Of a DNA stretch of 34,208 nt, positions 3,961-25,132 are shown piece by piece. The notes beneath the pieces are model-generated. The model was not told the origin of the DNA, searched no databases, and saw only the letters and a list, made by a program, of their open reading frames with translations. The stretch is from the NCBI GenBank assembly GCA_004431415.1, contig QPMI01000030.1, positions 1 to 34,208 on the forward strand, written 5' to 3'. Made by a program: the position numbers and the translations under genes. Source of the stretch: Cyanophora paradoxa CCMP329. Its lineage: Eukaryota > Plantae > Glaucophyta. Within the stretch, counting starts at the first letter, position 1, and each line of letters begins with the position of its first letter.

Positions 3961-4737
3961 TTATAAACCGCGTTTATATCGCATCAATTTATTGCTATGG
4001 ACTTGGCTTTTCACTTCTTTGGGGGCTTCCTCTTTCTCTGGTGGTTTCAGTTCATCTTCTTTCTTTTTTGGCTTTCTGTGGAAGCGAGGAAATGGGAAAT
4101 CTTTCACAAGCTCAGCTTTATCTACATAGTATTTAACTGAGTAGTTTGCAGAGGACCAAATAATATACTGATAGGAGTGAACATACTCTTCAAACATCTT
4201 GTAAAATCCTCTTTATTTCGCATTATATTGTATTCTTCCTCTATGGCTTCAAGTTCTTTGCGATTTGCAGCACTAGAAACATAGCATAGTCCGAATTAAC
4301 TCGAATAGTCGAAGAGACTTTCCTTAGCTTTTGTGTGATGCAGATAATGGATATTTTCGAATGGCGACCTCTGGAATACAGAGAGCCAATAATTTTATCC
4401 GAGTTAGGTCTACAATCTCATTATCGATTAAATCATCTAAAACACACATAACTGGTTAACAGGTTCACCTTTTCTATTTTCTCTTGCCTTTCATCTAGCA
4501 ATTTAGCAATGTAAGGGGCATCCCATTTTCCCAGTTGCAATGTTGCAACTTTATCCCAGAAATGATTGAAGCTGGTTCCACTCACAACTAATACAACATC
4601 AATCTTTTTGGCATCATGCAACTGCTTCAACCAATACTTACAGCTTCTGATTTACCAGTTGCTGATTTTCCTATTGCCAGTACACGAAATGGTGGTTCTA
4701 TCATTTCACCAGCCACAAATTCATCCAAATCAGTCAT
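3961..4737 (-). CDS. A32-like (FtsK/HerA) genome-packaging ATPase, frameshifted
   Basis: Manual translation: MTDLDEF...PFRVLAIGKSATGKS (Walker A, ~4648-4671), ...LDDL (Walker B), LYSRGRHSKISIICITQ (Arg finger/Gln sensor), STIRVNSDY. Mostly missed by the ORF track. Confidence 0.93.
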
Positions 4738-4779
4738 TGTTGTATATCTTTCTAATAAAGACATATAAAAATAATGCAG

Positions 4780-6157
4780 GGAGACTGAATATCGTAACAA
4801 TCTACAAATTTATACGACGAACCATCTTTGTCGAAATAATAAACTATGCATGAGAGCGCGAACATTAACATCGATTACCTTATCTGAAGGCATGTAGAGG
4901 GTGAGGAATGAAGAGGAGGAATTTGTTAAATCAACATAACCAGACTGGGCAATATTTCGAATCGCCTTTTCTCCATCAAGGCAGAAGGCAATCCTGAAAG
5001 GACATAGCGATCAGCAACCTTATCCATGTTAGAGCATTTGAAGGCATCAGCAATTAGCTCAGCACCTTTGAGTAGGGAAATTGGCTCAGTGGCAAAAAGT
5101 CGCTGTCCATTTATTTCAGTTGTGAATGTTATCTCTTTGGAGTGGCATAGGTCTTAAGAACACTGTGGGAGCCTGGGATTTATCAACAGTTGCATTATCA
5201 CGAACTGAAACAAGCAGAGCATAAACCAGTCAGAGATTTGAGAGAGGTTAATTCGATGGGTTGGGGCATTGCCCTTGGCAGGGAAAGCACTAGCATCAAC
5301 AAACCCAATGTCTAGAGCAGGAATAGCCATGCCAGTAGTCTTTACTTTTTCAATAAACAGTAGCGAAAGCTCATCAGAAACATTAATAGCATGCATGTAA
5401 AGGCGAGGAGAGGTAATTGTAATACCAGGGGTTGTTGCACCAAGACTGAAAGTGGTGATGTTTTGACCAACATGGGCAAGGGTTCCATCTGTGAAGTTTC
5501 AAGACCATCATCGGCAGTTGCATCAACTGTTCCAACAGCAGTTGTGAGTTCACGACCACCATAGGAAGTTTCAACATAACCCTTCTTCAGCATCCTTAAA
5601 CCAAACAGTAACAACCATTTCACCAGATAAAGCACCAGGGGAGGTAGTGATTTAGCCAAGGCACAGGAATTTCAACGAAAAATGAGCCACCAAGGCGGTT
5701 GGTTCCATGAGCAGGAATGCCATGAAACCATGCCCATTTGATCGCTTCTTTTTAGCTAGTTGATCCTCCGAATAATAGACCAGGGGAAATGAGCAGGAAA
5801 TCAGATGGAATATGGTAGGTGTAAGATCCATAGGTAATTTCAAGTCGCTGAACTAAAGCACCAACTGGGCGAGTGTATCCATGCGAACTAGGTCAGTATC
5901 ACCAGCAAAAGTGATGGCTGGAAGGTCGAAAGCAAGTTCGAGTTTTCCACAGAAATTGTAGCGAGGTAGCTTAAAGGAAATGCGATTTCCAACATTATTC
6001 TCAAAAGTATTGCTGGGATTCACAACAACTAGAACTGGCTTAGACTTGGATTCGAGACAAGCATAAGGGAGTTATCCAGGAAAAAGGCTTTCGCCTCCTC
6101 TGGGGTTGTTAGGGCTTCTTTCAGCGAAAGTCTTTGAAGAGTGGAAGTGATATCCAT
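4780..6157 (-). CDS. Major capsid protein (probable double jelly-roll, PLV type), heavily frameshifted; 3' end approximate
   Basis: Manual translation from the ATG at 6157: MDITSTLQRL...NRISFKLPRYNFCGKLELAFDLP...VQRLEITYG...FFVEIPVPW...HRINLSQI...EINGQRLF...AQSGYVDLT. About 450 codons, beta-strand rich, lying between the penton and the ATPase. Confidence 0.8.
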
Positions 6158-6209
6158 TATATTCTCTTTTATTATACTGCAACATAAAAATCTACCAATG
6201 ATCCTTAAT

Positions 6210-7212
6210 TTATGCGAAGCTTGTAATAACTGGATAGGAAGGGTGAAGCTGCGACATTCTCATCTTAAAGTATTCATAAACTGGGTCTCCTGCTGGCTCA
6301 TCACCATAGCGAATTTCAAAGGTCAGATGAACAGTTGACCCTCAAATCAATTGGTTCATTACAGCATTAACAATATCAACCGAGAAAGTGGATAATCCAA
6401 CCTTTTGTTATAGTATTATAAAGTGGATGAGCTTCTGTTGAATTGTAAACAACATGCTCACCATAGTCTTATCAGGGACCACTATTTTGTGAAAGTAACC
6501 AGTCAGAAGACCATCCCCACATTGCACCAGATCACCAGCTCCTTTACTCTCACAAACAAAACACTGTCCCTGGTCTTCTCAGGCTCAAAAGAAGATATAA
6601 TGCCATTCACGCGACCACCAGTAAAGATTCCATCAGTGAGAGCATCATAGACCTGTGATTGGATTGGGGAGTTACCATATCTTCCAGGATCAAGACCCAG
6701 CAGTCTAGCTGAACTCAACAGCTTTTGGATTGTTTGTTGGCTTGGGTTCACAGCTACTGAGAAAAGCCAAGTAAAATGGTACTGCTGAGTGGAATATAAT
6801 TCGTTTCAGTGATTCATCCCATTTGCAGCGAATGGATGGTTGGGGATTTCTGCCTTCGAATTTAGAGTTAATTACATTCACCAGTTGCTGGTGGCTTTGG
6901 ATGGGGGTGTTTCGACTTATAATGAATTGTTTCCATTGTTCATAGTCAGCAGCTGGGCGAACTGTTGGAATTCCTGAGCTTCCAGCTCCAGGAGTTTGTT
7001 CAGAATAATAAATGCTAAATGCATTGTCAACTGTCACATCTCCTGCTTTGGTTTCACCACTCACCATAGGGATACTGTTATAAAATTCGGCTGAGACCAG
7101 TCTCACAGCCTCACATTCTCATAACTACTGGGGAGTCTAGCCACAAAGCTTGATGTGGACCATCACCAGAGATTGTATTAAATGAGCTAACCTCGATGTA
7201 ATCCACAGGCAT
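6210..7212 (-). CDS. Penton / minor capsid-like protein 1 (frameshifted)
   Basis: N-terminus MPVDYIEVSS...SFVARLPSSYENV/EAVRLVSAEFYNSIP and C-terminus ...FSVDIVNA/NEPIDL/GSTVHLTFEIRY match the terminal motifs of PLV/NCLDV penton-like proteins; adjacent to the MCP. Confidence 0.72.
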
Positions 7213-7241: not shown

Positions 7242-8168
7242 ATGAACCGGCTCGTTAATATTGATAGCAGGGATAGAAGCCAAGGACAAAATGAAAACTC
7301 TTACAGGGTCACCCTCACAACTCCAGTAGAGAGACCAAGGGAATGTAGGGTTCTCTATGCAGAGATTCCAAACAGTATCTATAACAGTGTGGGAACTGAT
7401 CATCTAACAGTTCAGTTTAATTACCAAGATGGTTCATATAACCAAGTGATCACACAACAAGTGTATCCCCTTCCAGTGGCTACATCAATCAGGGTCATTT
7501 TGGGGTCACACACCCTTATAATTATGGGCTGAACTATTCAAGCTTCCAAACTATTGCAGGCAAAACAGTAGCTTTTGAGTTCAAGATATTCTACAACCCA
7601 ACTACCTATAAAGTGGAGTTTTACAGTAACCATGAGTTTCGTTTTATTGCAAGCAACCAGAGAATAGGGAAGCTTTTGGTGTGAGTTCTACTGAATACAC
7701 AATGGTTATTATAGCACTCCTCCTGCTGGTGGATCTCCCTATCGACCTGAAACCTTTTAAAGTATGATGGCAAACCTATTACACCTGATCACCCAGCATG
7801 GGGAATCACCTTCTCAGGACCCAGACTCTCATCTAAGCCCTTGCAATATTATTTTGACAGCAGAAAGATGTCTGATATGAATGCTGAGCAGTATCTATAC
7901 ATGCACATTAAAGAGCTTGCCCTTTTGCCAGCAGACACAATATAATTCCGAAATCGCAACCACATAACCAGGGGCAATCCTTAGATTGCAATTGAGTAAG
8001 GATATAGGTGGCTATGTTTACCATAGTGGTGAACATGCAGAATTCATTCAGATAAATGACAGAAACCTGGTGATAAGGGAACTCACAGTTGAGTTTAAAG
8101 ATTACTTTGGTGAACTGATTGATATGAATGGAATCGATAATTCTTTTCAGTTGGAGTTTATCGAATAA
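7242..8168 (+). CDS. Penton / minor capsid-like protein 2 (frameshifted)
   Basis: MNRLVNIDSRDR...SYRVTLTTPV...VLYAEIPNSIYN and C-terminus IRELTVEFKDYFGELIDMNGIDNSFQLEF are typical penton-family end motifs. Confidence 0.8.
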
Positions 8169-8204: not shown

Positions 8205-9708
8205 TCACATACACAAGGGGATAAATGCGAATATATTTAATTCTGAGAGAAAACCTATGTAAAAAGCATCCTTGATGCTGAGAGGAAATCCACTCAATAG
8301 AGCCACATCACCTGAGTTGTGAGCATTGTTAATGTTCTCACAGACATATATTTTGTTTTGCCCATCTGATCGAATAAAAGACCAGTTGATCCCATCAGTG
8401 GATGTTGCCACATTGAAAGTCTTAATAAAAGCATTGGTGTCCCCTGATCCATAGGCAATCACAGAAGAGAGTTCAAAAGTATATGGAAAAGCAACTTGAA
8501 GGTATTCAGTGGGGTTTCCATATCTGCTCAGGAGCATAGGCTCCAGCTTCCAGCCAAATGCTGAAGGTCTAGCCATGAAAGGCTCTTTACCAGTCACAGA
8601 GGATGAGGCAGTGAAGGCATCATCTGCAAGCTGATACCAATTAGCATCCAAAGGTGGTGATGTAGTGAGAGTGGATGAGATGTAAGCCTTTGTAGGGTTC
8701 TTTAATTCATAGTTTGCTACTAGAATGCTGCAAAGCTTATTAATCATATCATTGTTTGCTGCTATGTATGTTTCTGTGAAAGAAAGCATATCTGGGATTT
8801 TAGAAGTGTCATCCAGGGAGCTTACTATGTGATTCGGAAGAGGTACTGATAACCTATAGTATCTCCCATAATCCTGATCATAGTTGTAGGGTAACAACTC
8901 CTCCATCTTATCAAGGGCAGAAAGCTCACTTGCAGCCATGAGCATGTTAATCAATGGGCTTCCATCTGTTGAGGCAATCCATGAGAGAATGCCCCAGCTG
9001 TTGACAGTCTCATAAGCATAACCCACATAATCAGACTCTAAATGTGGGTCCACCTCTCCACAAGAGATACTTATTACTATAATGTCATCATCATCACTGT
9101 AAATCTTCTTTGCATGGCTGTAACCACACACACTGGGATTATTGTTTCCCGAAATGGCACCATCAATGAGACAGACATATACTCCCGATTGAAATCAACA
9201 ATGCTTACAGGTGAAAAGTATGTAGGAGCAGCAGAAGTAGCCTAGCAGCAATCTTACAGGGCATAAAGTTGTAATTGTTATCATTTGTGATAAATATTGG
9301 TTTCATATTCTGAGTATCAAAAGATGTAATCACAATGTCCTTTAGGGAATCCTGTATTAGTGATTCCCCAGTAACTGAATTGATTGCAGTCTCCAAGGGT
9401 CCCACATCATACTTTGTGTTAAATAGGGCATTTTCAATGATATTTCGAGGATTTGCGAAAATCAAAGGCAGTTGAGTTAGGTAAATATTGTGTAAATCGT
9501 TTGCTGTCAGTTTAGGTTCACCTGGTCTATCAGGATGCCTTATATTCAAACCTATTGCAATGATCCCACCAGTGGAAGTTCCACTCACAAGATCCACAAG
9601 ATCGATTATTCTCCTGCCAGTTCGATTTTCGATTTCTTTTAGCAGCCTGGTTATGATAATGCCCCTTGCACCCCCGCCAGAAAGACTTAAAACGACCTTG
9701 AGAGGCAT
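8205..9708 (-). CDS. Patatin-like phospholipase fused to a C-terminal F5/8 type C (discoidin) domain, frameshifted
   Basis: LSLSGGGARG, GTSTG nucleophile elbow, TSAAPTYF, LIDGA...NNP. The C-terminal EYLQVAF...FIKTFNVATSTDGINWSF is discoidin-like. Confidence 0.88.
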
Positions 9709-9751: not shown

Positions 9752-12700
9752 ATGAGCTTCAATTACCCACCAAATCTAGAAACCATTCAAGATGATAATG
9801 CAAGCAGCACCAAGCATGTGAACTTTGATAATATTAAAGTAAAGGGTTCAGTTTCAATTGACCACAGCTCTGATAATTCATCAAAGACTCAATCAAGGAG
9901 CATGCTTTATCTGTGAATCAAACCGATCCAGATAAAGAGGATGTCAGTGTAGCCTTTAGTTTGGTAATGTGAAAGCAAACCAAGTGGCAGAGATCAAAGC
10001 AACAAGAAGGAGACCTAGGAAACTAAAAACCAGTGGCACTCACCCAGATATACCTTCCAGGTTCGATAGTGGTCGATTGATTTTCAATGTTCAAGATGAG
10101 CAGGGCAAACAGAACACAGCTTTGCGAATTTACAATGAGGGCAGCACTGCAAAAGCTGAGGTCCCCAAGTATTGCAAGTGGGTCCCATTGCCAATACAAA
10201 TCAGGTCTCCTACACAAATGATGTCTACCCCAAGGATATTACATATGACTTTGCAAGAAATGAGCCTTTTGGGTTCTTTACTCCAAAAGATGTCCATCAA
10301 AAAAAGCCATCAATTACAATCAACAGTAGCCCAGTCAACCAGTAGCAATCCATTTACACCCTGATTTAGTCGAAATGGATAGGCACCTTTTGCCTTTGTA
10401 TAGCAATGTGAAAGACCTTGGAATTCGAACCAGGCAATGGCGAAATATCCATGGCAGCAATGTGTATGCAAATGGAGAGAAGCTTGTAAGTGAGAAAACC
10501 TAAGAGAAATCATTGAGCATTATGGTCCCAATGGACCTACTGTCCCATTCCCTATTCCATTTCCCAATGGACCACCCGATTTAACACCAAAGAAGCAACC
10601 TGGAAGAGAATACACAGCAACTGAAGATGTAGCCTTTGGGCAGCACATTGTTAGTTGGGAGCAAGTTCGCAATAAACCTATAATTGAACCAAAAAGCAAA
10701 TAGATGAGCAGTATTTACCTCCTGAAATCGATATATTAGAGCTTGATGAATATCAATTCGTTCCAGATGAGGAAGAATATTTACCAGATGGTTTCGACCC
10801 ACAAGAATATGAGTATGATCAGTTTGACCCCAATGAGGAGGAGATACTCCAGATGGTTTTGACCCACAAGAATATGAGTATGAACAGAACTATGAACCTG
10901 ATGAGGAGTATTTACCAGATGGTCATGATCCACCAGCTGTTGACTATGAGCAACCTTATGAACCCCATGAGGAATTGTTACCAGATGGATTTCGACCTGA
11001 GATCTGGGAGTTCTTCCTGATTATGAACAAATTAATAATAAACCTGCAAAGTATCCCCAGAGGATCACAATCATGATTGGATGAGATCTTAGGCAAACCT
11101 CAAAAGTATCCACCAGAGGATCACAGGCATGATTGGGGTGAAATTGATGGGATTCCAACTGAGTTCCCACCAAGCAAACATGAACATATTTGGGATGAGA
11201 TCAATGACCAACCAGAATTTGCAAAGGTGGAGCCTCTTGATAACTTGGGGTTTCTCTTTACCAGACTTGTAATATCCCTGAAAGGATCTTTTTGAATGAA
11301 CACTATGTTCATGTGAATGGGACACTTGCAAATTCAGCTATGAGAGGACCACTTCATATTAGGACATTACCAGGCTCTTTTGAAACCCCACCACCACCAG
11401 GAGCAACCATACCAAATATCTTTGTGTCAAGCTACATGGAGGCTGACATTCCCACAGATACATTCAGAGTCCCAACAGACCCAGCAACCTACCAAAATTA
11501 CAACTCTGCTATACAGGTTCATGTAGCAGATGTAAGCAGCTTAGATGGCTCAAGACCAATGATAGTTTTCAGTCGAGATAAGTATTCCTACATTCCCATA
11601 GTGGGAACTGCAATGATAATTATGGAAGGGCAGAGCTTGCATGGATTAAAACAGATTATGGTGGGGTTCTGGAAGCCAATCAAAGAATGGCTGCAAAAAA
11701 CATACACAATGAGAGCATTTCGAGAGTAGTCACAGAGGATTACCTTCAAGCCCAAAACTACATAGATGAAACAGAGCTGAATGTAATCATTGCAGGTATA
11801 GGTATTGGTGTTACAGGCAATTACCTCCCTCTCACAGGTGGGACTATTGATGGAACAGTAACAGCATGTAACTTCTTTGTCCATACTGAAAGCAATCAAA
11901 CCTTTCCTGTGGTTCATCCAGGAGGTGAGTATGAGATACCTGATGATCCAGCTATTATGCCCATTAAGATTGATCTCCCTTCTGATTATGTAGGAAGGGG
12001 TGAACTAAAGACCATCTCTTTCACAGGAGATTATAATGATCTCATAAATAAACCTACTGCTGCAAATCTGCATCCTGTTGCATTTTCGGGTAGTTTCCTT
12101 GATCTAAATAATAGATCACACACCCACACAAAGGCAGAAATCACAGATTTTGCACACACTCACACCAAATCACAAATTACAGATTTTGCACACTTCCACA
12201 CAAGAGCAGATATCACAAATTTCGCTCACACTCATGTTAAATCAGAGATATTAGATCTCGGAAATGTTGCATATGTGGGTCACACCATACCAAGGCAGAG
12301 ATTACAGATCTTGGAAATGTTGCATATGTTGGTCACACCCACACAAAGGCAGAGATTACAGATTTTGCACACACTCATGATTGGAATACAGATATCTATA
12401 ACAAACCTGCAATTTTCTCAGGAAACTACAATGATTTGACCAATAGACCAACTCTTGATCCTTTCACAGCCACCACAATCAGAGCCAACAACACAATGTA
12501 TGTAGGATCAGGTCAGATTGTAGAACCAGCAGGACCTATGTTTGAAGAAACATGGTTCTTCCACAATTCGCAGAATTACTTTGATAAAACCTTACTTGTT
12601 CGTGGAAATGCCTATGCAAGAAATTTCTATGCTATGAACCCCTCAAATAATGCGACCATCAGTCGATGTATTACAGAGGCAGATCTTTCCAGTCAACTCA

Positions 12701-12999
12701 ATGCATATTTTAATGGGAAAATCCAAGCAGGAACGTATGTTTACACTACTCCTTATCTTTGGGCAAATCCTGACCATACGTTTAACCTCACTATTAATTT
12801 CAACAGCAGCTTTGCTAACCCTCCTATTGTAACAACTGGTATACAACACAATGAGACAGCCTACTACTATCGAATGTATGTTAGGCTTAAACAAGTTTAC
12901 AGTAGCTATTTCACTTGTGAGCTTGACATAGTTCCATTAAGTTCTTTTGACAGACCAGGATTTCCAGTTACAATTCATTACATTGCTGTCGCAATTTAA
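9752..12999 (+). CDS. Long fibre protein (~1,080 codons if the pieces are one gene) with HxH shaft repeats and an H-type-lectin-like tip
   Basis: ATG at 9752 (MSFNYPPNL). Acidic PDGFDPQEYEY repeats, KYPPEDHxHDWxEI and HTHTKAEITDFA repeats, YLPLTGGTIDG, and C-terminal KIQAGT...INFNSSFANPPIVTTG...IHYIAVAI. No intergenic-type gap between the pieces. Confidence 0.75.
10763..11220 (+). repeat. Intragenic tandem repeats (acidic EEYLPDG units, then PPEDHxHDWxEI units)
   Basis: CCAGATGGTTTyGACCCACAAGAATATGAGTATGA at 10784 and 10849; AAAGTATCC...AGAGGATCAC...CATGATTGG twice at ~11048-11140. Confidence 0.85.
12119..12385 (+). repeat. Intragenic HTHTKAEITDFA / HTHTKAEITDLGNVAYVG repeats
   Basis: Repeated CACACnCACACnAA...ATyACAGATTTTGCA units and a duplicated GATCTyGGAAATGTTGCATATGTkGGTCACACC segment. 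Confidence 0.9.
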
Positions 13000-13018
13000 C
13001 TATTTCGTAATTATAAAG

Positions 13019-14093
13019 ATGACCTCCCTTTTAGAGATTCCAAACTATGAACTTGCAGCCAAATCACTCCACAGCACCTCTCATGAAGTAGTCGACTCCA
13101 CACCCGGTTTTATTTGCACTGAAACTACAAGTAATACCTCTTTCACAGAGAACAGTATACTGAGGTCAAAGAAATTCGATGTGATCGAAATGGAGGCAAG
13201 ATTAGAACCACAGGCATTATAATCTCGAATAAAAACCAAGTTCAAGCAGGTCAGGTAGTCCCCAATTCAGCAATATATGATAATGTGGGTGGAGTCACCA
13301 CAGCACAGATAGTTACTTTTGGTAACACAAGTAATAGTTCTGCTCTTGTGGTGAAAAGTGGAGGAGCATACATTGGTGATGGAGCAAATGTTGTGGGACT
13401 GTCACAGCAAATCAATTAAATGTGAACGGGACAAGTAGTTTTGGTGGGTATATGAATTTCAATGGTGGGCTTTCAGGGAGTATTCAGTATGGAACACTCA
13501 CACTTTCCACAAGAATAAATACACCTGAGATTGACAACATAAGTGACACAGTCATGAATTACAAGAGGAATGGGACACAATCTTCTCTCTTCAAAAACAA
13601 CTCAAACAGATAACACAACTGTTCAACATCTCACACTTCCTGACTACAAGTATCTGAAATTAAGTAGTCACCCTCGTTTCTTTGCAACAAAACAGCAACC
13701 AAATGGGTCAATAACTGAAACATTTCGTTACATTCAAACCGAATCCTTTTATGCGATAGTCAACAATGGAAATCATTTCAATACCACAACAGGGCTTTTT
13801 ACCGCACCTGTTTCCGGTAACTATTTAGTCTCATTCAGTGGATTCTTTTTTATTCCTGATACTCGAAGAAATGGAATAATCACTACCTCCTTACGAAAGA
13901 ATGGAAGCTCATTTGGAGTTGAGGTTACAACTTTAAATAAATCATCAACTGTGTATGCTCATAATGGGTTTGAGATTATTGTAAGCTTGAAGCTAATGAT
14001 GGTCTCTCTTTAACTTTTGCTTCTAATGATGCTGGTAATATAGAATATAATGTCAGATTTTTCTTCGGATGTATGCTTCTCAGCTCTTCATAA
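13019..14093 (+). CDS. Short fibre paralogue A with C1q/TNF-like head (frameshifted)
   Basis: Shared N-terminal module (TPGFICTETT...EIRCDRNGG...SGGAYIGDG). C-terminal HPRFFA...NNGNHFNTTTGLFTAPVSGNYLVSF is a C1q signature. Confidence 0.85.
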
Positions 14094-14115
14094 TATTATC
14101 CACATAATGTAAAGT

Positions 14116-15133
14116 ATGACCACTCAAATAGCTGTCCCTGTTTTCTGTTATGCCGCCCCAAAATTACATCAACTCAATCACACAGTAACAGATGCAACCC
14201 CTGGTTTTATTTGCACTGAAACGACAGGAGCCGATTCGTTTTCTCAAAACTCTGTGATCAGATGCAAAGAAATTCGATGTGATCGCAATGGGGCAAGGTG
14301 AGAACCACAGGTTTAATAGTTTCAAACAAGAACCAAGTTCAATCAGGTCAGATTGTTTCCGATTCATCAATATATGATGATGTTGGAGGGTCACCACACC
14401 CAAAATAGTAACCTTTGACAATACAATTAATAACTCTGCTCTTGTTGTGAGAAGTGGAGGAGCTTACATTGGAGATGGGGCAAGAGTTGATGGAACTCTT
14501 ACAGCAAACCAGGTGAGTATTACAGGAACAAGCACCTTTACAGGATTGGTAACAGCTAATGCTGGTATTTCACTACCAATTGCCTCACAGGCTACAATCA
14601 CAGCAACAAACAAGGTTGTTACACCAGAAATCGATACAGGAGCCAATGTAGACCTTCTCCTGAAACGAAATAGTTACACTGTTGTTACTCTGGAAGCGAA
14701 TAGTTTGACAGTTAATACAGGGTGTTATCTCAAAACATCACATCCACGATTTTCAGTTCAACTTGGCTACAACCACACTGCTACAACTTCTGCTGATCTA
14801 CTAAACTGGGCAACAGTTCGAGTAAACAATACCAATTCATTCAGCACATCAACTGGAAGGTTCACAGCACCTGTTGCAGGACACTATCGATTTTCAGTAT
14901 TCACTTCTTCAACCACAACTTCTGCTATTGAATTGTTTCTCAGGGTAAACAATGCAGATCCAGGGGGATTGAGCATTTCCCAAGTTCACAATCTGTCAAC
15001 AACAAATAAAGCGCTGTGTTTCTCTTGCATTCTCAATCTTGCCCAAAACGAATATGTGACACTTGTTACAAATTCAGTCGGTTCCTATGCCAGTCAAACA
15101 GCCTTCTCAGGTGAATTAATAAGCATCGTTTAA
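14116..15133 (+). CDS. Short fibre paralogue B with C1q/TNF-like head (frameshifted)
   Basis: Same N-terminal module; HPRFSV...NNTNSFSTSTGRFTAPVAGHYRFSV...LNLAQNEYVTL...FSGELI. Confidence 0.87.
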
Positions 15134-15155
15134 TTTTCTTATGGTAGTTTAGGAA

Positions 15156-15421
15156 ATGTCGAATATTTACCAAGTGGTTCTATCTGATATTGAGAAGTTG
15201 GGAATGGAATTTTGTGCTGCTTCTGTTCAAGATTGGATCGATAATGCAGCCCATAACAGGGCAAGAATCGCAATTGATGAGATTGTTCAGAAAGAGATCC
15301 ACTCTTGCATCTCAGGTGGAGTTCAAATACCAACCTCAAAGGAAGCAATTGTGTTACAGGCATTCCGAAGGGAACTGTGAAAAAAGCGATCGAGTATAAT
15401 ATTGTCACAGAAGAACAATGA
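15156..15421 (+). CDS. Small protein resembling a family found beside fibre genes in aquatic phages (possible fibre accessory factor)
   Basis: MSNIYQVVLSDIEKLGMEFCAASVQDWIDNAAHNRARIAIDEIVQ...QIPTSKEAIVLQAF. The W-x-x-N-A-x-x-N-R-A-R-I-A-x-D-E-I pattern is recognised from memory; the 3' end is frameshifted. Confidence 0.65.
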
Positions 15422-15456
15422 ACATTATTTTTCTTTCCTTCTTAGTAAAAGAAGCA

Positions 15457-16302
15457 ATGGGTGAATATAATCGAGTTCAACTGCCTATATATTCCCTTGG
15501 ATCCCCTGCAATGCATTTTCGCCAGCATGAAGTAAATGATGAGGTTCGTGGTTTAGAATCCACAGAGAGACCCAATTCCAATGGCAACTCCTTTGATAAA
15601 AATTCGATTATTCGAGTTAAAGAGCTGAGAGCTGATAAGAATTCTGGTGTGGTTAAAACAACTCGACTTCTTGTCACAAATGCTAACTTCTTTCAGCCTA
15701 CTAATGGAGGTCCTGATGCTTACAGTGTTGATCTGAAAGCCCTTGATTTCGATAAGAATTCTGCTGCTGTTACTGTGAGATCAGGAGGAGCATTTATTGG
15801 GGGTGGCTGTCGAATTTCAGGTCAGCTTTCATCCTCAATTTCGTATAATGATGTCCCAGATACTCTAGAGCAAAATGTAGAAGACCCCCAACGAATTCGA
15901 TTATATACTCCTGTTGCACAGCAGCCATTAATTCAATTTTACATTGGATATACTGTTACTCTTGAAAACTCGGAATTAATTGAAGGAACCAAAAGAGTAC
16001 TGAGAGGTCTTGCGATTCCATCTGCAATGCTTTCCCTTTGTAGAGCCAACAACAATCAAGTAGGTCATAGATACTATTTCAATGTTCAGGGATATAATCA
16101 TTTCGGTTATGGCTACTGTGTTTATAATAATAATTTCACCTTTGACTTGTTTGTTACTGATATTGGGTTATATACTATAACTCTTATCGGTTTGAGAACA
16201 GATATAGCCGCTGTATCAGCTCTTAGAGGTGTAACTCCTGATACTCTTTCAGTTACAGGGTTTTACCAAGAATTAGATGTAATTGATGACCCAACCCCAT
16301 AA
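15457..16302 (+). CDS. Short fibre paralogue C with non-C1q C-terminal domain
   Basis: Intact ORF, probable start at MGEYNRV (15457) after TAAAAG. Shares ELRADKNSGVVKTTRLLVTNANF and SGGAFIG with A, B and D. Confidence 0.8.
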   Translation: MGEYNRVQLPIYSLGSPAMHFRQHEVNDEVRGLESTERPNSNGNSFDKNSIIRVKELRADKNSGVVKTTRLLVTNANFFQPTNGGPDAYSVDLKALDFDKNSAAVTVRSGGAFIGGGCRISGQLSSSISYNDVPDTLEQNVEDPQRIRLYTPVAQQPLIQFYIGYTVTLENSELIEGTKRVLRGLAIPSAMLSLCRANNNQVGHRYYFNVQGYNHFGYGYCVYNNNFTFDLFVTDIGLYTITLIGLRTDIAAVSALRGVTPDTLSVTGFYQELDVIDDPTP

Positions 16303-16324
16303 AAGATATATCCTTTAATGTAAA

Positions 16325-17156
16325 ATGGCTGAGCAACCCCACTTGAACGAATTATTACACCTCAGCTATCATTAGCTGCCCAGCAAACCATGTTCTGCAG
16401 CATGCTACCTTTGATGATGTGGAGGGTCTCCAATCAACAGAGGTCCAACCTACAATGAACACCTTTGGTTCCACCCACAAACTGAGATTACAGGAACTCA
16501 GGTGTGATAAAAATAATGGAATAGTTAAGACAACTAAGCTACTTGTCACAAATGCAAACTTTTCTGCTCATTATGGAGACCCAGATAGCTATGGAGATCC
16601 TCTGTCTACTTATTCTTTTGAATCTAGGTCGGGAGCTATTAACTGCAAATCGGGGGGAGCTTATATTGGTGATGGTCTTAGGGTTGGTGGGGCTGTTGGA
16701 GCGCCTTTATTTGTGAATGATCAACCCAATCCCATTGATCCCAATACAAGAATTCGAACCTATGTCCCCAGCATGAATGCCCCCTATATAATCAAAATAT
16801 TCCCCATTGTAGTAAATGAACAGACAGCAGTAGTAGACTCCCTTGTTGAGATTGGTGACCACTACAAGGTGGTTGTGGATATCCCACCAGATGTTTATGC
16901 TCTTTGTCAAGTAGAGGGTGGAACTCCTAATTTTGCAGTTGTGATCACCCCATATGATAATTTTGGTATTGCTTATCATGGAGTCAATTTCGGTTTGGAA
17001 GACTATCAGTTTCTGGTTAGAGCCACCAAGTTTGGTATCTACAAGTGTGTATTATATGCTGAGAGAACCGATTTTATTGCAAGGCAGAATACCTATGCTG
17101 AGTATTATGGGACAAATCGATATTTCCCCATTTTCGGGCAGGATACTGCTCCATAA
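16325..17156 (+). CDS. Short fibre paralogue D with C-terminal domain homologous to paralogue C
   Basis: ATG at 16325 with an early frameshift; ELRCDKNNGIVKTTKLLVTNANF, SGGAYIGDG; C-terminal DP..RIR.Y.P...IP....LC...Y..FG..Y...G.Y...L...RTD shared with C. Confidence 0.8.
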
Positions 17157-17178: not shown

Positions 17179-17450
17179 ATGGATAGTAAAACAAAAAGTT
17201 TATTGATGCTGCTATGACAGTTCATGGTAAAGATAAATTCGATTACAGTGAGACACATTACATCAAAGCTCAAGAGAAAGTATCTGTGAGATGTTTGCAG
17301 TGTAATAAGGTGATCCTTACCTATCCCTTTAATCATGTGAAGGGATCAGGGTGTAGGGAATGCAACAAAAAGCACTCTCAGGCTTATAGGAAAAGGGCTA
17401 CTTCATCAATCAGAGTAGAGTATAGGGATATTTGCATTAGGTTCGATTAG
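17179..17450 (+). CDS. Zn-ribbon protein, single DUF723-like repeat
   Basis: FIDAAMTVHGKDKFDYSETHY...VSVRCLQC...PFNHVKGSGCREC resembles the repeat unit of viral homing-nuclease-associated proteins; no nuclease domain follows. Confidence 0.7.
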
Positions 17451-17479: not shown

Positions 17480-17878
17480 ATGGAGACTAAATACAGAGGC
17501 TTTCATGTTATGCTTGATTACAAAGCTAAATCAGCTATTGCAACAGGACATGAGCATGTAAGCTTCCTAGGTAATTGGATTATGAGAACCCTAGAACAAG
17601 CAATATTAAGACAAGGCATTAGGATTGTTCATAAACACTGTGAGATATTTGATGGCAAAGTATCACCTCCTGGGTTTGCATTGGTTCTGCTATTAGATGA
17701 AAGCCATTGCACAGCTCATTGTTATTCCAATGAAGGCATGTTAGCAATTGATATATTCAGTTGTGGTAAAGAAGCTCAGCATAAAACACAAGCAGTTGCA
17801 GATGAGATCGATAAAACAATGAATTTCCTCACATTTGAGAAGACTGAGAGACATAAACATGATAGATTCCCGTTTTGA
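17480..17878 (+). CDS. speD: Pyruvoyl-dependent S-adenosylmethionine decarboxylase-like proenzyme (short prokaryotic/viral class)
   Basis: Intact 132-aa ORF: GFHVMLDY...SPPGFALVLLLDE^SHCTAHCYSNEGMLAIDIFSCG, with the ESH self-cleavage site and the DxFxCG motif. Confidence 0.88.
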   Translation: METKYRGFHVMLDYKAKSAIATGHEHVSFLGNWIMRTLEQAILRQGIRIVHKHCEIFDGKVSPPGFALVLLLDESHCTAHCYSNEGMLAIDIFSCGKEAQHKTQAVADEIDKTMNFLTFEKTERHKHDRFPF

Positions 17879-18112
17879 TGGGTTTCTATAATGATAATCA
17901 AGGTAATTTACCTTTTGTTTTACAATAGCAACTGTTACAAAAAGATATAATATATCCTTTTCCTACAGTAGCTTTCTACAATGTTTATTTTCCGGATTCC
18001 GGACATTTTTTACGATAGAATTCTATTGTAAGTAATTGGAATACTATTCGATTTCATTACAGTAAAACTCAACATTCCCCTTGATTCCCCCTATTATATA
18101 ATATTTATATTA

Positions 18113-18550
18113 AAGTGGACTCAAGGTTGACTCATATAAATCGTAAAAGTAGTAATAGTATATGGATTTTGTTACGAATTCAATGCAAGGGTTGACTAAG
18201 TGGGTTGAGTTGACTCAAATTTCACAGGAAATATTTGGGACCAAAAGTTTTCTAAAAAGGATTTCAAAAAATGTGTCAACTCCCCCCACTTAGTCAACCC
18301 TGACCATAAACAGTAAGGATTTGAGCTAACATGTATCACAAAGTGAACATTTTGAGTCCACTTAGAAGATCCACTTTTGAAATCCAAGTTGATTTTGCTT
18401 GAAATTTCAAAGTTGATCTAAAAGTGAGTCCACCCTGATTGATTATGGTAACAAAGTTGACTAAGTTGACTAAGTTGAGTCATCTTAAGAAATTCAAAGA
18501 GACTAAGAGTTCAAAATGTTTATGAAAAGTGAGTCAACTTAGACCACTTA
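18113..18550. repeat. Subterminal array of GTTGAC/GTCAAC/GTGGAC/GTCCAC-core motifs, including a 16-bp inverted repeat
   Basis: GGGTTGACTAAGTGGG (18189-18204) is the reverse complement of CCCACTTAGTCAACCC (18285-18300); tandem AAGTTGACT x2 plus a partial copy at ~18453-18480. Confidence 0.8.
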
Positions 18551-18597
18551 TGATAACAAAGTTAAATATTTAATTGATTTAATCGGAAAAGAACATG

Positions 18598-18825
18598 ATT
18601 TAATCGAATTTATTGATATAATTCCGATTAGATTCATTTAGGATTCAATTAAGATCAATCGAAGTTATTGATATAATTCCGATTAACTACAATTAAGATA
18701 CAATATCGATTAATCGAGTTTATCGATATAACATCGATTAAATTAATTGAAATTGCATATAAAAATATGAAAATGCATGTGAAAATTCAAATAAATTAAT
18801 CGATTTTATTGATATAACATCGAAT
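18598..18825. repeat. Four degenerate ~30-bp direct repeats
   Basis: AATCGA..TTATyGATATAA(TTC/CAT)CGA at about 18602, 18657, 18712 and 18798. Confidence 0.85.
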
Positions 18826-18900
18826 CACACATATGAATATTCATATTTTAATCCTGAGGCGGAACGCCGAGGGATTAAAATATGAATATTCATATGTGTG
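18826..18900. repeat. Terminal hairpin: perfect 29-bp inverted repeat with 17-nt loop
   Basis: CACACATATGAATATTCATATTTTAATCC (18826-18854) and its exact reverse complement (18872-18900); loop TGAGGCGGAACGCCGAG. Confidence 0.95.
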
Positions 18901-22134: not shown

Positions 22135-24685
22135 ATGAATATCGCACCGGTTCGCGCGTTTTAGTGCCGTTTTCAATCTTCAGAAAGAGCGCCGACGCCG
22201 CGAGGACAGGTTTCCGAGCTTCAGACCGCCATTGACCAGGCGGAGAAGAAGCTGACTATCGTTTTCATTGGGAGCGAATGCACTCCGTGGTCCAAGACCG
22301 GCGGTCTTGGCGACGTGAGCACCGCGCCGCATCTTCCGTTTTGCGTTTCGCTCACCTCGCCGGACCGCGCTTCCTTCGCAGGTCATGCGTGATCTTCCTG
22401 TCAATCTGGCTACTCGTGGCCACCGCGTGATGTCTATCCAGCCCCGGTATGACCAGGTGCGCTCGCGTGCGAGTTCCAGTGCGGCGCGCCGTTTCGTGCG
22501 CCGACGCGCCCGCAGTACTTCGACGCCTGGGACACCTCCGTCCGCACCTCCGTCAAGGTGAACGGCAAGATGGAGGAGGTCGGCTTCTTCCACATGTGCG
22601 CTCTTTCTGAGTGTGGGGGCGGGCGGCCCCGTCGCTATAAGATGTCTGGAGAAAAGAAAAGGATGAACTGAGCGTTGCTCATTTACACTGCTGCTTCCCT
22701 CGCTGACCCCCGGTCGACTCAGCACCGCCAAGGGCGTAGACCGCGTGTTCATCGACCACCCCTGGTTCCTGGCCAAGGCGCGTGCATTCCAAACTTTCTC
22801 GCCGCTTCGCTCTTGCTCTCCTTCTTACTCTCTTTCGCGCAGGTCTGGGGGACGACGGGCAACAAGCTGTACGGCGCCAAGACCGGCGTCGACTACCCCG
22901 ACAACCCCCTGCGCTTCGCTCTGATGTGCCAGGCGGCGCTGGAGGCGCCCCTGCGCATCCCGCTGCCAGACCCGGCTGGCACAGTCTACGGCGAGGACGT
23001 CATCTTCGTCTGCAACGACTGGCACTCGGCGCTCGTCCCCATCTACCTGAAGGCCAACTACAAGACCCGCGGCCTCTACCAGAACGCGAAGAGCATCTTC
23101 CTCCTCCACAACGTGCGCCGGCCGCGCCGCGCCCCGCCGGGCCCCGCCGACGCCAACGCCGACGCCGACGCGGGCGCGCAGATCATCTACCAGGGCCGCT
23201 TCCCGCTCGAGTTCTGGCCGGCGCTGAACCTCCCCGAGGCGGCCAAGAAGGACCTCGTCTTCGAGTCCTGCTTCGCGCCCCCGCCCCTCGACGGCATCTC
23301 CGAGCAGCGTGCGTTGTGCCGGCTGCGCCGCCGCTCTCTCGCGCCGCGCCGCTGAGACGCCAGCGCGCAGCGATCATCTCGCTGAAGCCGATGGCCATGA
23401 TGAACTTCCTCCAGGCCGGCTTCATCCACGCGGACCGCATCTGCACGGTCTCGCCCCAGTTCGCCGCCGAGGTCGCCTCGGGCCCCCGCGGCGGCGTCGA
23501 GCTCGACAAGTACATCCGCGCCAAGGGCATCACCGTGCGCTAGCCCGCCCCGGGCCCCTCTCCGCCCGCTCGCCGGCGCCTGACGGCGGATGCGGGGCGC
23601 GCAGGGCATCATGAACGGGATGGACATCGAGATGTGGGACGCGAGCAAGGACAAGTTCCTCGTGACCAAGTACACCGCCTCGTCGGTGGACGAGGGCAAG
23701 GCCGCCAACAAGGCCGTCCTCCAGGCCGAGATGGGCCTCAAGGTCTCCCCCACGACCCCCCTCATCGCCTTCGTCGGCCGCCTCGACGACCAGAAGGGTC
23801 CGCGCGCCCGTCCCCGCGCCCTCTCGCCCCCGCACGCCTGACTCTCTCTCGCGCGCAGGCGCCGACTGCATGGTGGAGGCGATGCCGTACCTGGTGAACA
23901 CGCTCGGGGCGCAGGTCGTGTGCTACGGCTCGGGCCGTGAGGACATGGCAGCCAAGTTCAAGGCCCTCGAGAAGCAGTTCCCGGGCATGGCCAAGGGTAA
24001 GACCGCCTTCGTCCCCAAGGAGGAGCACACGGTGCGCCCCGCCTCCTCCCTCGAGCGGCCGGCCCGCGCGCCGGCGCCTCGCTCACGCGGGGCGGGGCGG
24101 CGCAGCTGATGGCCGGCGCCGACTACGTGCTGATGCCGTCGCGCTTCGAGCCGTGCGGGCTGGTGCAGCTGCACGCGATGAAGTACGGCGCGGTGCCGAT
24201 CGTGTCGTGCACGGGCGGCCTCAAGGACAGCGTCATCCCGGAGTGCGGCTTCACCTTCGAGGAGATCCCCTCGCCCGAGTACCCCGGCATGAAGATCTCC
24301 CCCGAGCTCATCGCCAAGGGCACCAAGATCATCGAGGAGGGCTGCAAGGAGGCCCTCGCCGGCTACGGCTCCAAGGCCTTCGCCGGCATGCGCGCCGCCT
24401 GCATGAAGCAGGACTTCGCCTGGAAGAAGCGCGTCCTCGTCTACGAGAAGGTGCCCCCCGCCCTCTTCTTCCTTCTTCTTCCTTCTTCTTCTCACCGCGC
24501 GCGCTCAGGTCTTCTACGAGACCCTCGGCATCGACCGCGGCGCCCCGGTCACGGCCAAGGCCTCGCCCGTCGCCCCGGAACCCTCGGCGGCCCCCGCCCC
24601 GGCGACCATCTCGGCGGCCACCTCCGGGGGCATCCTCCCCGTCCCCAAGGCGGCCGCCCCCAAGGCCCCCAAGGTCGGCGCGTAA
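22135..24685 (+). CDS. GBSS: Granule-bound starch synthase (GT5), multi-exon, no transit peptide
   Basis: Spliced reading [42 protein letters not shown]...NDWHSAL...HN/IIYQGRF...[10 protein letters not shown]...[23 protein letters not shown] introns and an Ala/Pro-rich tail; closely resembles Cyanophora paradoxa GBSS as recalled. Confidence 0.95.
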
Positions 24686-25132
24686 GCACAGGCTCCGTTA
24701 GCATACGAACCGCGCCGGCCCGGGGGGAGCCCCAGGCCGGCCCCGCGCGCACTGCATTTTTGAGAGTTACGCCCGCCACACGGCGGGTGTACGTTAGATG
24801 TCTTCCGTGTCGCACTCCCTCTAGTGCTTGTACCATTTATGCTTCACCATTTCCGTCTCGGAGGATCCTTTAGCGGATTCCTGTGCATTGCTTTTGTCAC
24901 TTTCGCATAATGTCTTCGCAGTTGTTCAGAGACCCCAAAGCAGTGTACAGACTGCCGTGTGCTGCCTTAGAGCCTGTGTCATTTAATTAAAAACCAGCTT
25001 CGCGCCAATCACACGTGCAACTGCTGCAAGGAATGCCGGCGCCCAGCAGGCGGAGCGGATATCGATCTCATTAATGAAATAGACAGAGAGCACTCGCGCG
25101 CGGGCGCCGGCGCCCAACGCTCCGGTCCGCGC

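Follow-up and report, generated by a model that had tools for sequence, protein, structure and literature searches.

A family of spike-like genes with one N-terminal module and two unrelated head types in a putative endogenous polinton-like virus of Cyanophora paradoxa

Fibres of phage type are known from polinton-like viruses (PLVs). Those of glaucophytes encode fibres with PTR and H_lectin domains as well as patatin-discoidin fusions, and in other PLVs tail-assembly chaperone genes lie beside the fibre genes (PMC12220804). In the PLV Gezel-14T, the fibre protein Ltf was found in virions (10.1101/2022.07.28.501842). Here we describe a locus of the glaucophyte Cyanophora paradoxa CCMP329 (assembly GCA_004431415.1, contig QPMI01000030.1, positions 1 to 34,208; "the window" is this whole stretch of 34,208 nucleotides). 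Four paralogous genes, A to D, share an N-terminal module of 117-122 amino acids (aa) and end in two unrelated types of head, C1q in A and B and a different domain in C and D. A small neighbour, gene E, has phage relatives that lie behind C1q-tipped genes, and the A and B slots vary among sibling copies. We favour the reading, with a probability of about 0.65, that the locus belongs to an endogenous PLV with four paralogous spike-like genes that share the module, carry C1q or beta-sandwich tips and are accompanied by a partner gene, E.

Comparable systems are known from other viruses and from bacteria. Adenoviruses belong to a virus lineage related to PLVs. They can carry several fibre types per virion, and some have two fibre genes (PMC8156859). 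The cyanophage Pam3 pairs a tail fibre with a downstream chaperone (gp24/gp25; PMC9608196), and fibres of extracellular contractile injection systems (eCIS) join a conserved N-terminal eBAP anchor to diverse heads, including C1q and H-lectin (PMC12923769). Giant viruses possess adhesin-rich hypervariable islands with clustered genes of probable bacterial or phage origin (PMC13620141). The design principle of conserved anchor, variable tip and partner gene is therefore already known from phage and eCIS fibres, and an earlier note on this DNA, made from the letters alone, overstated the case in taking the cluster for its best candidate for an undescribed system. What is new here is an undescribed N-terminal domain, a C1q tip of phage type that a eukaryotic virus carries next to a likely partner gene, and slots that vary among the endogenous copies. 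C1q is not mentioned in the main text or the two text supplementary files of PMC12220804, and the module of A to D does not appear in the accessible parts of 10.1101/2025.10.09.676808 or 10.1101/2025.06.17.660233. Domain mosaicism in these viruses has been reported for replicases, with fibres unmentioned in the accessible part of the source (10.64898/2026.10.13.758929). A literature search outside which most subscription journals and bioRxiv supplements lay found no paper joining C1q with a PLV, polinton or virophage.

Four paralogous genes with one N-terminal module

The five genes of the locus are as follows; the lengths of A, B and D were obtained by reading through the frame breaks with X.

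13019..14093, plus strand: gene A; N-terminal module to 13383, shaft of ~93 aa, C1q head from ~13660; ~359 aa, with one-base frame changes
14116..15133, plus strand: gene B; module to 14479, shaft of ~84 aa, C1q head from ~14732; ~339 aa, with two frame changes
15156..15421, plus strand: gene E; small helical protein, 74 aa up to a stop at 15380, followed by a tail that reaches 15421 in another frame
15457..16302, plus strand: gene C; intact, 281 aa; module to 15807 and a predicted beta-sandwich head (aa ~158-246)
16325..17156, plus strand: gene D; ~277 aa, with two frame changes near the start; module to 16676 and a head of the C/D type

The earlier note had proposed four tandem genes starting at 13019, 14116, 15457 and 16325. 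All four starts are confirmed, on the plus strand; the genes are not contiguous, since gene E, which that note had missed, sits between B and C. The N-terminal module it had recognised is indeed common to A to D, with pairwise identities of 36-65% (z 27-72) and, in 6 of 6 pairs, no shuffle out of 200 as good. The module ends at SGGA(Y/F)IG(D/G)G, and a module profile run over six frames finds no fifth copy in the window.

An exhaustive search with gene C through 1.84 billion cluster representatives returned five matches, four of them true relatives and each of these a singleton from ENA or Logan assemblies:

P0001: full D-type protein with a C/D-type head, 63% identical to D
P0002: the module by itself, 136 aa
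P0003 and P0004: a C1q head behind the module (Pfam C1q 45.2 and 28.2 bits, cut-off 23.7)

The fifth, P0005, is a repeat protein with 28 matching residues only and was dropped. Both head types thus occur behind the module outside the locus as well (P0001; P0003 and P0004). Word-based searches gave no relative for gene C, none for the C/D alignment among longer proteins, and P0003 and P0004 only for the module profile. In Pfam and PHROGs no family corresponds to the module, and among PDB sequences nothing relevant matched, the single match obtained being unrelated (E 0.004). Neither the module nor genes C and D found a locus in viral contigs, metagenome contigs, prokaryote genomes or GenBank phages; an Atlas search gave no match at 0.9 or above, and Foldseek against viral models gave none at E <=0.001. 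The N-terminal domain of this four-member spike-like family is undescribed.

Eighteen columns are invariant across eight module rows, the start Met counted, among them H20, H24, D28, G32, E37, F46, E56, R58 and D60 (numbering of C) and a GGxxIGxG motif. The combination His/His/Asp/Glu would be in keeping with a metal site or with a docking surface. The rest of the module, strands with Gly turns, presumably resembles fibre-shaft segments.

As the earlier note had read them, A and B end in C1q heads: B scores 41.2 bits and a fragment of A 24.0 bits against Pfam C1q (cut-off 23.7), and head B matches C1q in PDB at E 8e-10. Against a profile built from 24 heads of the viral and phage loci, the four viral C1q heads reach 59-86 bits; head B itself found no locus in GenBank phages. 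Between module and head, A and B have a shaft of 84-93 aa, absent from the earlier description. Their N-termini are more alike than their heads, as had been claimed, with 65% identity in the module, 35% in the rest and 31% in the heads.

C and D also share a head, being 49% identical in the module and 26% in the rest (z 12), and the C1q-type and C/D-type tails are unrelated to each other (z -0.5 to 0.5). For C this head is a predicted beta-sandwich (aa 158-246, pLDDT 50-79). Its top three structural rows are the fibre tips of R1 pyocin, R2 pyocin and phage AP22 (Z 6.1-6.2, root-mean-square deviation 3.5-4.0, 84-92 aligned), and an H-type lectin follows at Z 5.5, all of them short of the Z of 7-8 that chance typically gives. 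The proposal of a shared domain like phage fibre tips therefore stands for the sharing, and for the weak resemblance it gives a lead only. Both head types are adhesin-like.

Gene E and its relatives in phages

Relatives of gene E occur at 53 loci in viral contigs of IMG/VR (42-57% identity) and in Limnohabitans phage DC33 and Synechococcus phage S-SRM01. Three of these 55 loci lack an upstream open reading frame (ORF) in the sequence covered and 18 are duplicates, which leaves 34 distinct genes lying directly upstream. A C1q end is found in 25 of them (22 above the cut-off); 5 others are tail-assembly chaperones, 1 has a weak XkdW match and 3 have no match; because the phage loci are related to each other, these are not 34 independent events. 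The baseline in the same loci is 14%, with 55 of 393 plus-strand ORFs matching the profile of 24 C1q heads. In S-SRM01, the annotated neighbours of the E relative are tail-fibre-like and endosialidase. Because E relatives directly follow C1q-tipped genes in most of these viral and phage cases, the C1q tip and partner gene E probably came from tailed phages, a direction that we infer.

What might gene E do? Its predicted fold consists of three helices (pLDDT 87.6), and searches of Pfam, PHROGs and PDB gave no chaperone family and no PDB match. By analogy with Pam3 gp24/gp25 (PMC9608196), E is likely a tip partner or chaperone, which would help to fold or cap the C1q tip. The family to which it belongs, with no Pfam or PHROG entry, is a candidate for a new phage fibre-partner family, and the C1q-E pairing points to a possible function for these unannotated phage proteins. 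An invariant QDWIDNAA motif runs through the family, whose members often follow C1q-tipped fibre genes in viral contigs from aquatic sources.

Variable A and B slots and the origin of the heads

The element is present in many copies, seen as 1,164-1,588 contigs in three identity bands in three short-read runs. Across 2.5 kb of the locus (12950-15500), 563 contigs fall into four identity bands. Nine joints, each from a single contig, connect flanks that are shared while the part between them differs; 2 of them span head A and 7 lie within B. They match at 80-90% likeness and fit a replacement of the middle as well as a deletion. Six contigs carry mutually different sequence right before gene E (median 255 nt, agreement 0.64). 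Two of the joints, 13528-14112 and 14507-15155, recur in runs X2 and X4. The A and B slots are variable among sibling copies, and their flanks are kept. In all four DNA-type runs, contig depth drops strongly from the flanks to heads A and B, in agreement with the joints; this measure cannot rank gene parts and was not counted.

A, B and D contain one-base frame changes in the assembly, and C is intact. One-base losses, mostly in short single-letter runs, are typical of unpolished long-read assemblies. In three short-read runs, nearly all contig depth has an extra letter at both breaks of D (16336 and 16378), and several breaks of the neighbouring long fibre gene also carry one extra letter; for A and B, run X5 has extra letters at the breaks listed. 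Assembly errors thus seem to account for the frame breaks, and we rejected a cluster of pseudogenes as the main explanation, the breaks being filled in short-read contigs. This very copy is likely intact, and no firmer statement is made because the element is multi-copy and siblings could supply the letters.

How did the heads come to differ? Plain duplication and drift would require no recombination: A to D would be old paralogues whose N-terminal parts are under strong purifying selection and whose tails diverge or decay as the endogenous copies age. A single change of head class fits this. In the eight-row module tree, the C1q and C/D types lie on either side of one branch (89/90). Likewise, the similarity of A and B extends ~20 residues past SGGAYIGDG and identity falls gradually by 20-residue block (16, 12, 6 and 7 of 20), and the joints may be deletions. 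At four-fold sites, A and B are identical at 23 of 41 positions in the module (p 0.0006 against saturation) and at 7 of 19 in the head (p 0.35), and the contrast between module and tail is not significant (Fisher p 0.34). Decay, however, is at odds with the intact gene C and with the extra letters that contigs carry at the breaks of A, B and D. Moreover, D and P0001 are conserved evenly (module 58%, tail 65%), whereas the C1q pairs are uneven, A/B at 65 versus 35% and P0003/P0004, in the same pattern, at 76 versus 33%. We consider drift by itself somewhat unlikely.

The earlier note had instead regarded the heads as interchangeable, which would make the genomic copies a library of heads that actively recombine onto one docking module at or near SGGAYIGDG. 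One module does carry two unrelated head types, here and outside; free interchange is not borne out, as the head class changes once on the module tree. In support of active exchange, the A and B slots differ among copies with shared flanks, the synonymous sites of the module are unsaturated, and the module and head trees disagree. The module tree groups A with B (97/97) and rejects a grouping of B with P0003 and P0004 (p-AU 0.035), whereas the head tree places B with P0003 and P0004 (83/83 in a 14-row tree with 10 of the 24 phage heads, 89 in a 28-row tree). On the head side this conflict is not significant, since the C1q heads do not reject A with B (p-AU 0.33) and A is a long branch.

The positions at which contigs depart from the window sequence bear on the motif itself. 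In A they lie at 13376, 13436, 13502 and 13528, the first inside the motif, and in B at 14506-14511, 14556, 14568 and 14673. They are spread over ~150-200 nt, scattered from the motif to ~200 nt downstream. SGGAYIGDG thus marks where the stretch shared by all four genes ends and is not a dedicated exchange site. No invertase, recombinase or reverse transcriptase was recognised in Pfam scans of the windowed part of the element. A shufflon, invertible segment or diversity-generating retroelement was tried as a mechanism and rejected: the genes all lie on one strand, and there are no inverted repeats round the heads among the 25 longest pairs. Altogether, recombination in the A and B slots is plausible, and active exchange from a head library is unlikely.

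The element, its reading and its place among known systems

We read the AT-rich part of the window as an endogenous PLV with many divergent integrated copies, because its patatin-discoidin and PTR/H-lectin architectures match those reported for glaucophyte PLVs (PMC12220804). Within the window the element covers positions 1 to ~18900 at a GC content of ~0.40, which steps at ~18900 to ~0.66 (0.53-0.80 on the GC-rich side). The window holds its right end only; the left end lies outside. Its other main features are:

3961..7212, minus strand: morphogenesis genes in pieces; packaging-ATPase-like, major-capsid-like from 6157, penton-like from 7212
7242-~8168, plus strand: second penton-like gene, by position, size and motifs
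8205..9708, minus strand: fusion of a patatin lipase with a discoidin (F5/8) domain, split between two frames (Pfam)
9752..12999, plus strand: long fibre, now in pieces and probably a single gene of ~1,080 aa; segments free of stops cover the whole stretch
18000..18900, no strand: right end of the element, with AT-rich repeats and a terminal inverted repeat or hairpin, where it joins the GC-rich host DNA

The packaging-ATPase-like gene has a Walker A motif GKSATGKS at 4671, a Walker B at 4446 and a YSRGRH motif at 4378, and we take it to be of the A32 type; its fragments have no match in Pfam or PDB. A D5-type helicase fragment with a P-loop at 299 gives a weak DUF5906 match in Pfam. The capsid and penton names follow from position, size and motifs, and against viral contigs these genes gave one uninformative 14-residue match. 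The two penton-like genes (6200-7212, minus; 7242-8168, plus) are transcribed divergently, ~30 nt apart. Two vertex types could serve different fibres.

The long fibre consists of acidic repeats, including three of 22 aa (10784-10980), phage-tail-repeat-like units and a C-terminal H-type-lectin-like head; its Pfam matches to PTR (E 0.02) and H_lectin (E 7e-5) are both under the cut-off. The module profile finds no N-terminal module in it. The number of its HTH-type phage tail repeats (12105-12380) differs among copies, as seen in contig joints. The earlier figure of ~40% of the viral DNA for cluster and long fibre together holds if the fibre begins at 9752 (39% of 18.9 kb) and fails if it begins at 11244 (31%).

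Downstream of D lie a small Cys-rich ORF (17214-17450, plus) with a weak treble-clef zinc-finger match (DUF4379, E 0.009) and, as the final gene before the terminal repeats, a gene for S-adenosylmethionine decarboxylase (17480-17878, plus; Pfam E 2e-11), an unusual cargo for a small virus. The terminal region (18188-18900) contains 55-nt tandem repeats and GTTGACT(A/C)A motifs in both orientations, with a 36-bp hairpin at 18826-18900 at the junction with host DNA. On the GC-rich side, ~4 kb from the insertion, is what we take to be a starch-synthase-like gene of the granule-bound type (22900-24900, plus) with short GC-rich introns. A tRNA search found none.

Ten gene starts, those of A to D, the long fibre, both penton-like genes, the patatin gene and two small genes, have a TAAA within 12 nt (for example 13010-13021, 14104-14118 and 16316-16327), and the capsid-like gene has one within 20 nt; the background is 60 of 776 ATGs (8%). 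No TAAA lies near the starts of the ATPase gene or the primase-like gene. TAAA is a possible late promoter or start signal and hints that A to D belong to the structural gene class, a hint only because the motif was picked by eye from the same starts.

How might such a set of genes work? A to D would encode short trimeric capsid spikes tipped by C1q (A, B) or by a predicted lectin-like beta-sandwich (C, D). By their design, the first ~40 residues, with the invariant H-x3-H-x3-D-x3-G-x4-E, may serve to attach the protein to the virion, a penton vertex being the probable site, and the rest of the module and the shaft may wind into a three-stranded beta fibre. The head would bind glycans or proteins on the surface of the algal host; attachment and entry may be helped by the patatin-discoidin protein and by the long H-lectin fibre. 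One ancestral spike gene would have been duplicated, and one lineage would have gained the phage-type C1q tip with its downstream partner gene. The tips of A and B appear to diversify fast between viral copies, probably helped by homologous recombination, which would act anywhere in the conserved module or proximal shaft and not at one fixed site.

Several observations count against the favoured reading of an endogenous PLV with spikes and a partner gene. In a monomer model of gene C built from two sequences, residues 1-150, which include the module, have a pLDDT of 21-35, so that its anchor and fibre roles follow from design only. The adenovirus penton-binding tail FNPVYPY is not conserved in the module rows; only B, C, P0003 and P0004 have a loose P(V/I)(F/Y)x(Y/F/L), which is absent from D, P0001 and P0002. 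The fold of gene E matched no fibre chaperone, its best rows being ribbon-helix-helix antitoxins (Z <=4.7), and E has no TAAA near its start. The capsid-like and penton-like fragments match no Pfam family. The sequencing runs, which all bear one organism label, are not independent. To these we add the kinship of the phage loci, the chance-level fold matches of head C, the double interpretation of the joints, and the lack of significance in the head tree and at the four-fold sites. Alternatively, A to D could be soluble or surface lectins made on reactivation, for example for a helper giant virus, with E an unrelated DNA-binding regulator, which would agree with the missing docking signal and E's ribbon-helix-helix rows; we find this very unlikely, since E relatives follow C1q fibre or tail-chaperone genes in 30 of 34 cases, A to D share a start motif and a gene block with the long fibre and penton-like genes, and a fibre-like protein is present in Gezel-14T virions (10.1101/2022.07.28.501842).

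In a bolder extension of the favoured reading, the host genome would keep copies of one virus as an archive that recombines; all copies would have the same new capsid-anchor domain, and the phage-derived tips in their fixed slots would differ. Reactivated particles would show up to five fibre types on two vertex kinds, and the C1q tip and its partner would have been captured together from tailed bacteriophages. We regard this picture as a whole as rather unlikely.

Why does the locus matter? Fibre attachment and host recognition in PLVs and virophages are largely an open field, and the locus offers a small, defined candidate for an anchor domain, in which some residues never vary. With its four natural variants of the head, its two penton-like genes and its numerous sibling copies, it opens docking and host recognition to direct tests. 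In the C1q tip and the partner next to it, a two-gene tail module of phages would clearly have been reused by a eukaryotic virus.

Among the closest described systems are the phage-like fibres of PLVs, with phage-derived adhesin modules and the same PTR and H_lectin and patatin-discoidin architectures as in this element. They differ in being mostly single long fibres, often with an S74 chaperone, and the accessible parts of PMC12220804 describe no family of four short paralogues with a common N-terminal module. Phage tail fibres share the N-terminal docking part, the TNF/C1q-like tip and the adjacent small partner gene, a position that the relatives of E occupy. Here, in contrast, the virus is eukaryotic and has no tail or baseplate, E has no sequence or fold match to Pam3 gp25 or any solved chaperone, and the module of A to D is absent from phage loci and GenBank phages. 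The fibres of eCIS likewise join a conserved N-terminal anchor to diverse heads. Those are baseplate-anchored bacterial contractile systems, whereas the module of A to D has no relative in prokaryote genomes, the comparison with eBAP being by description.

Adenovirus fibres are tail-shaft-head trimers on penton vertices, with more than one fibre type per virus, and A to D would resemble them in this layout. Unlike adenovirus fibres, A to D lack a conserved FNPVYPY and any match to the adenovirus fibre Pfam families, and the element has four paralogues plus a long fibre, with C1q and phage-like heads. Finally, giant-virus islands also contain clustered adhesin genes that vary among close relatives. 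Here, in contrast, the virus is small and endogenous, and the variation lies inside orthologous gene slots.

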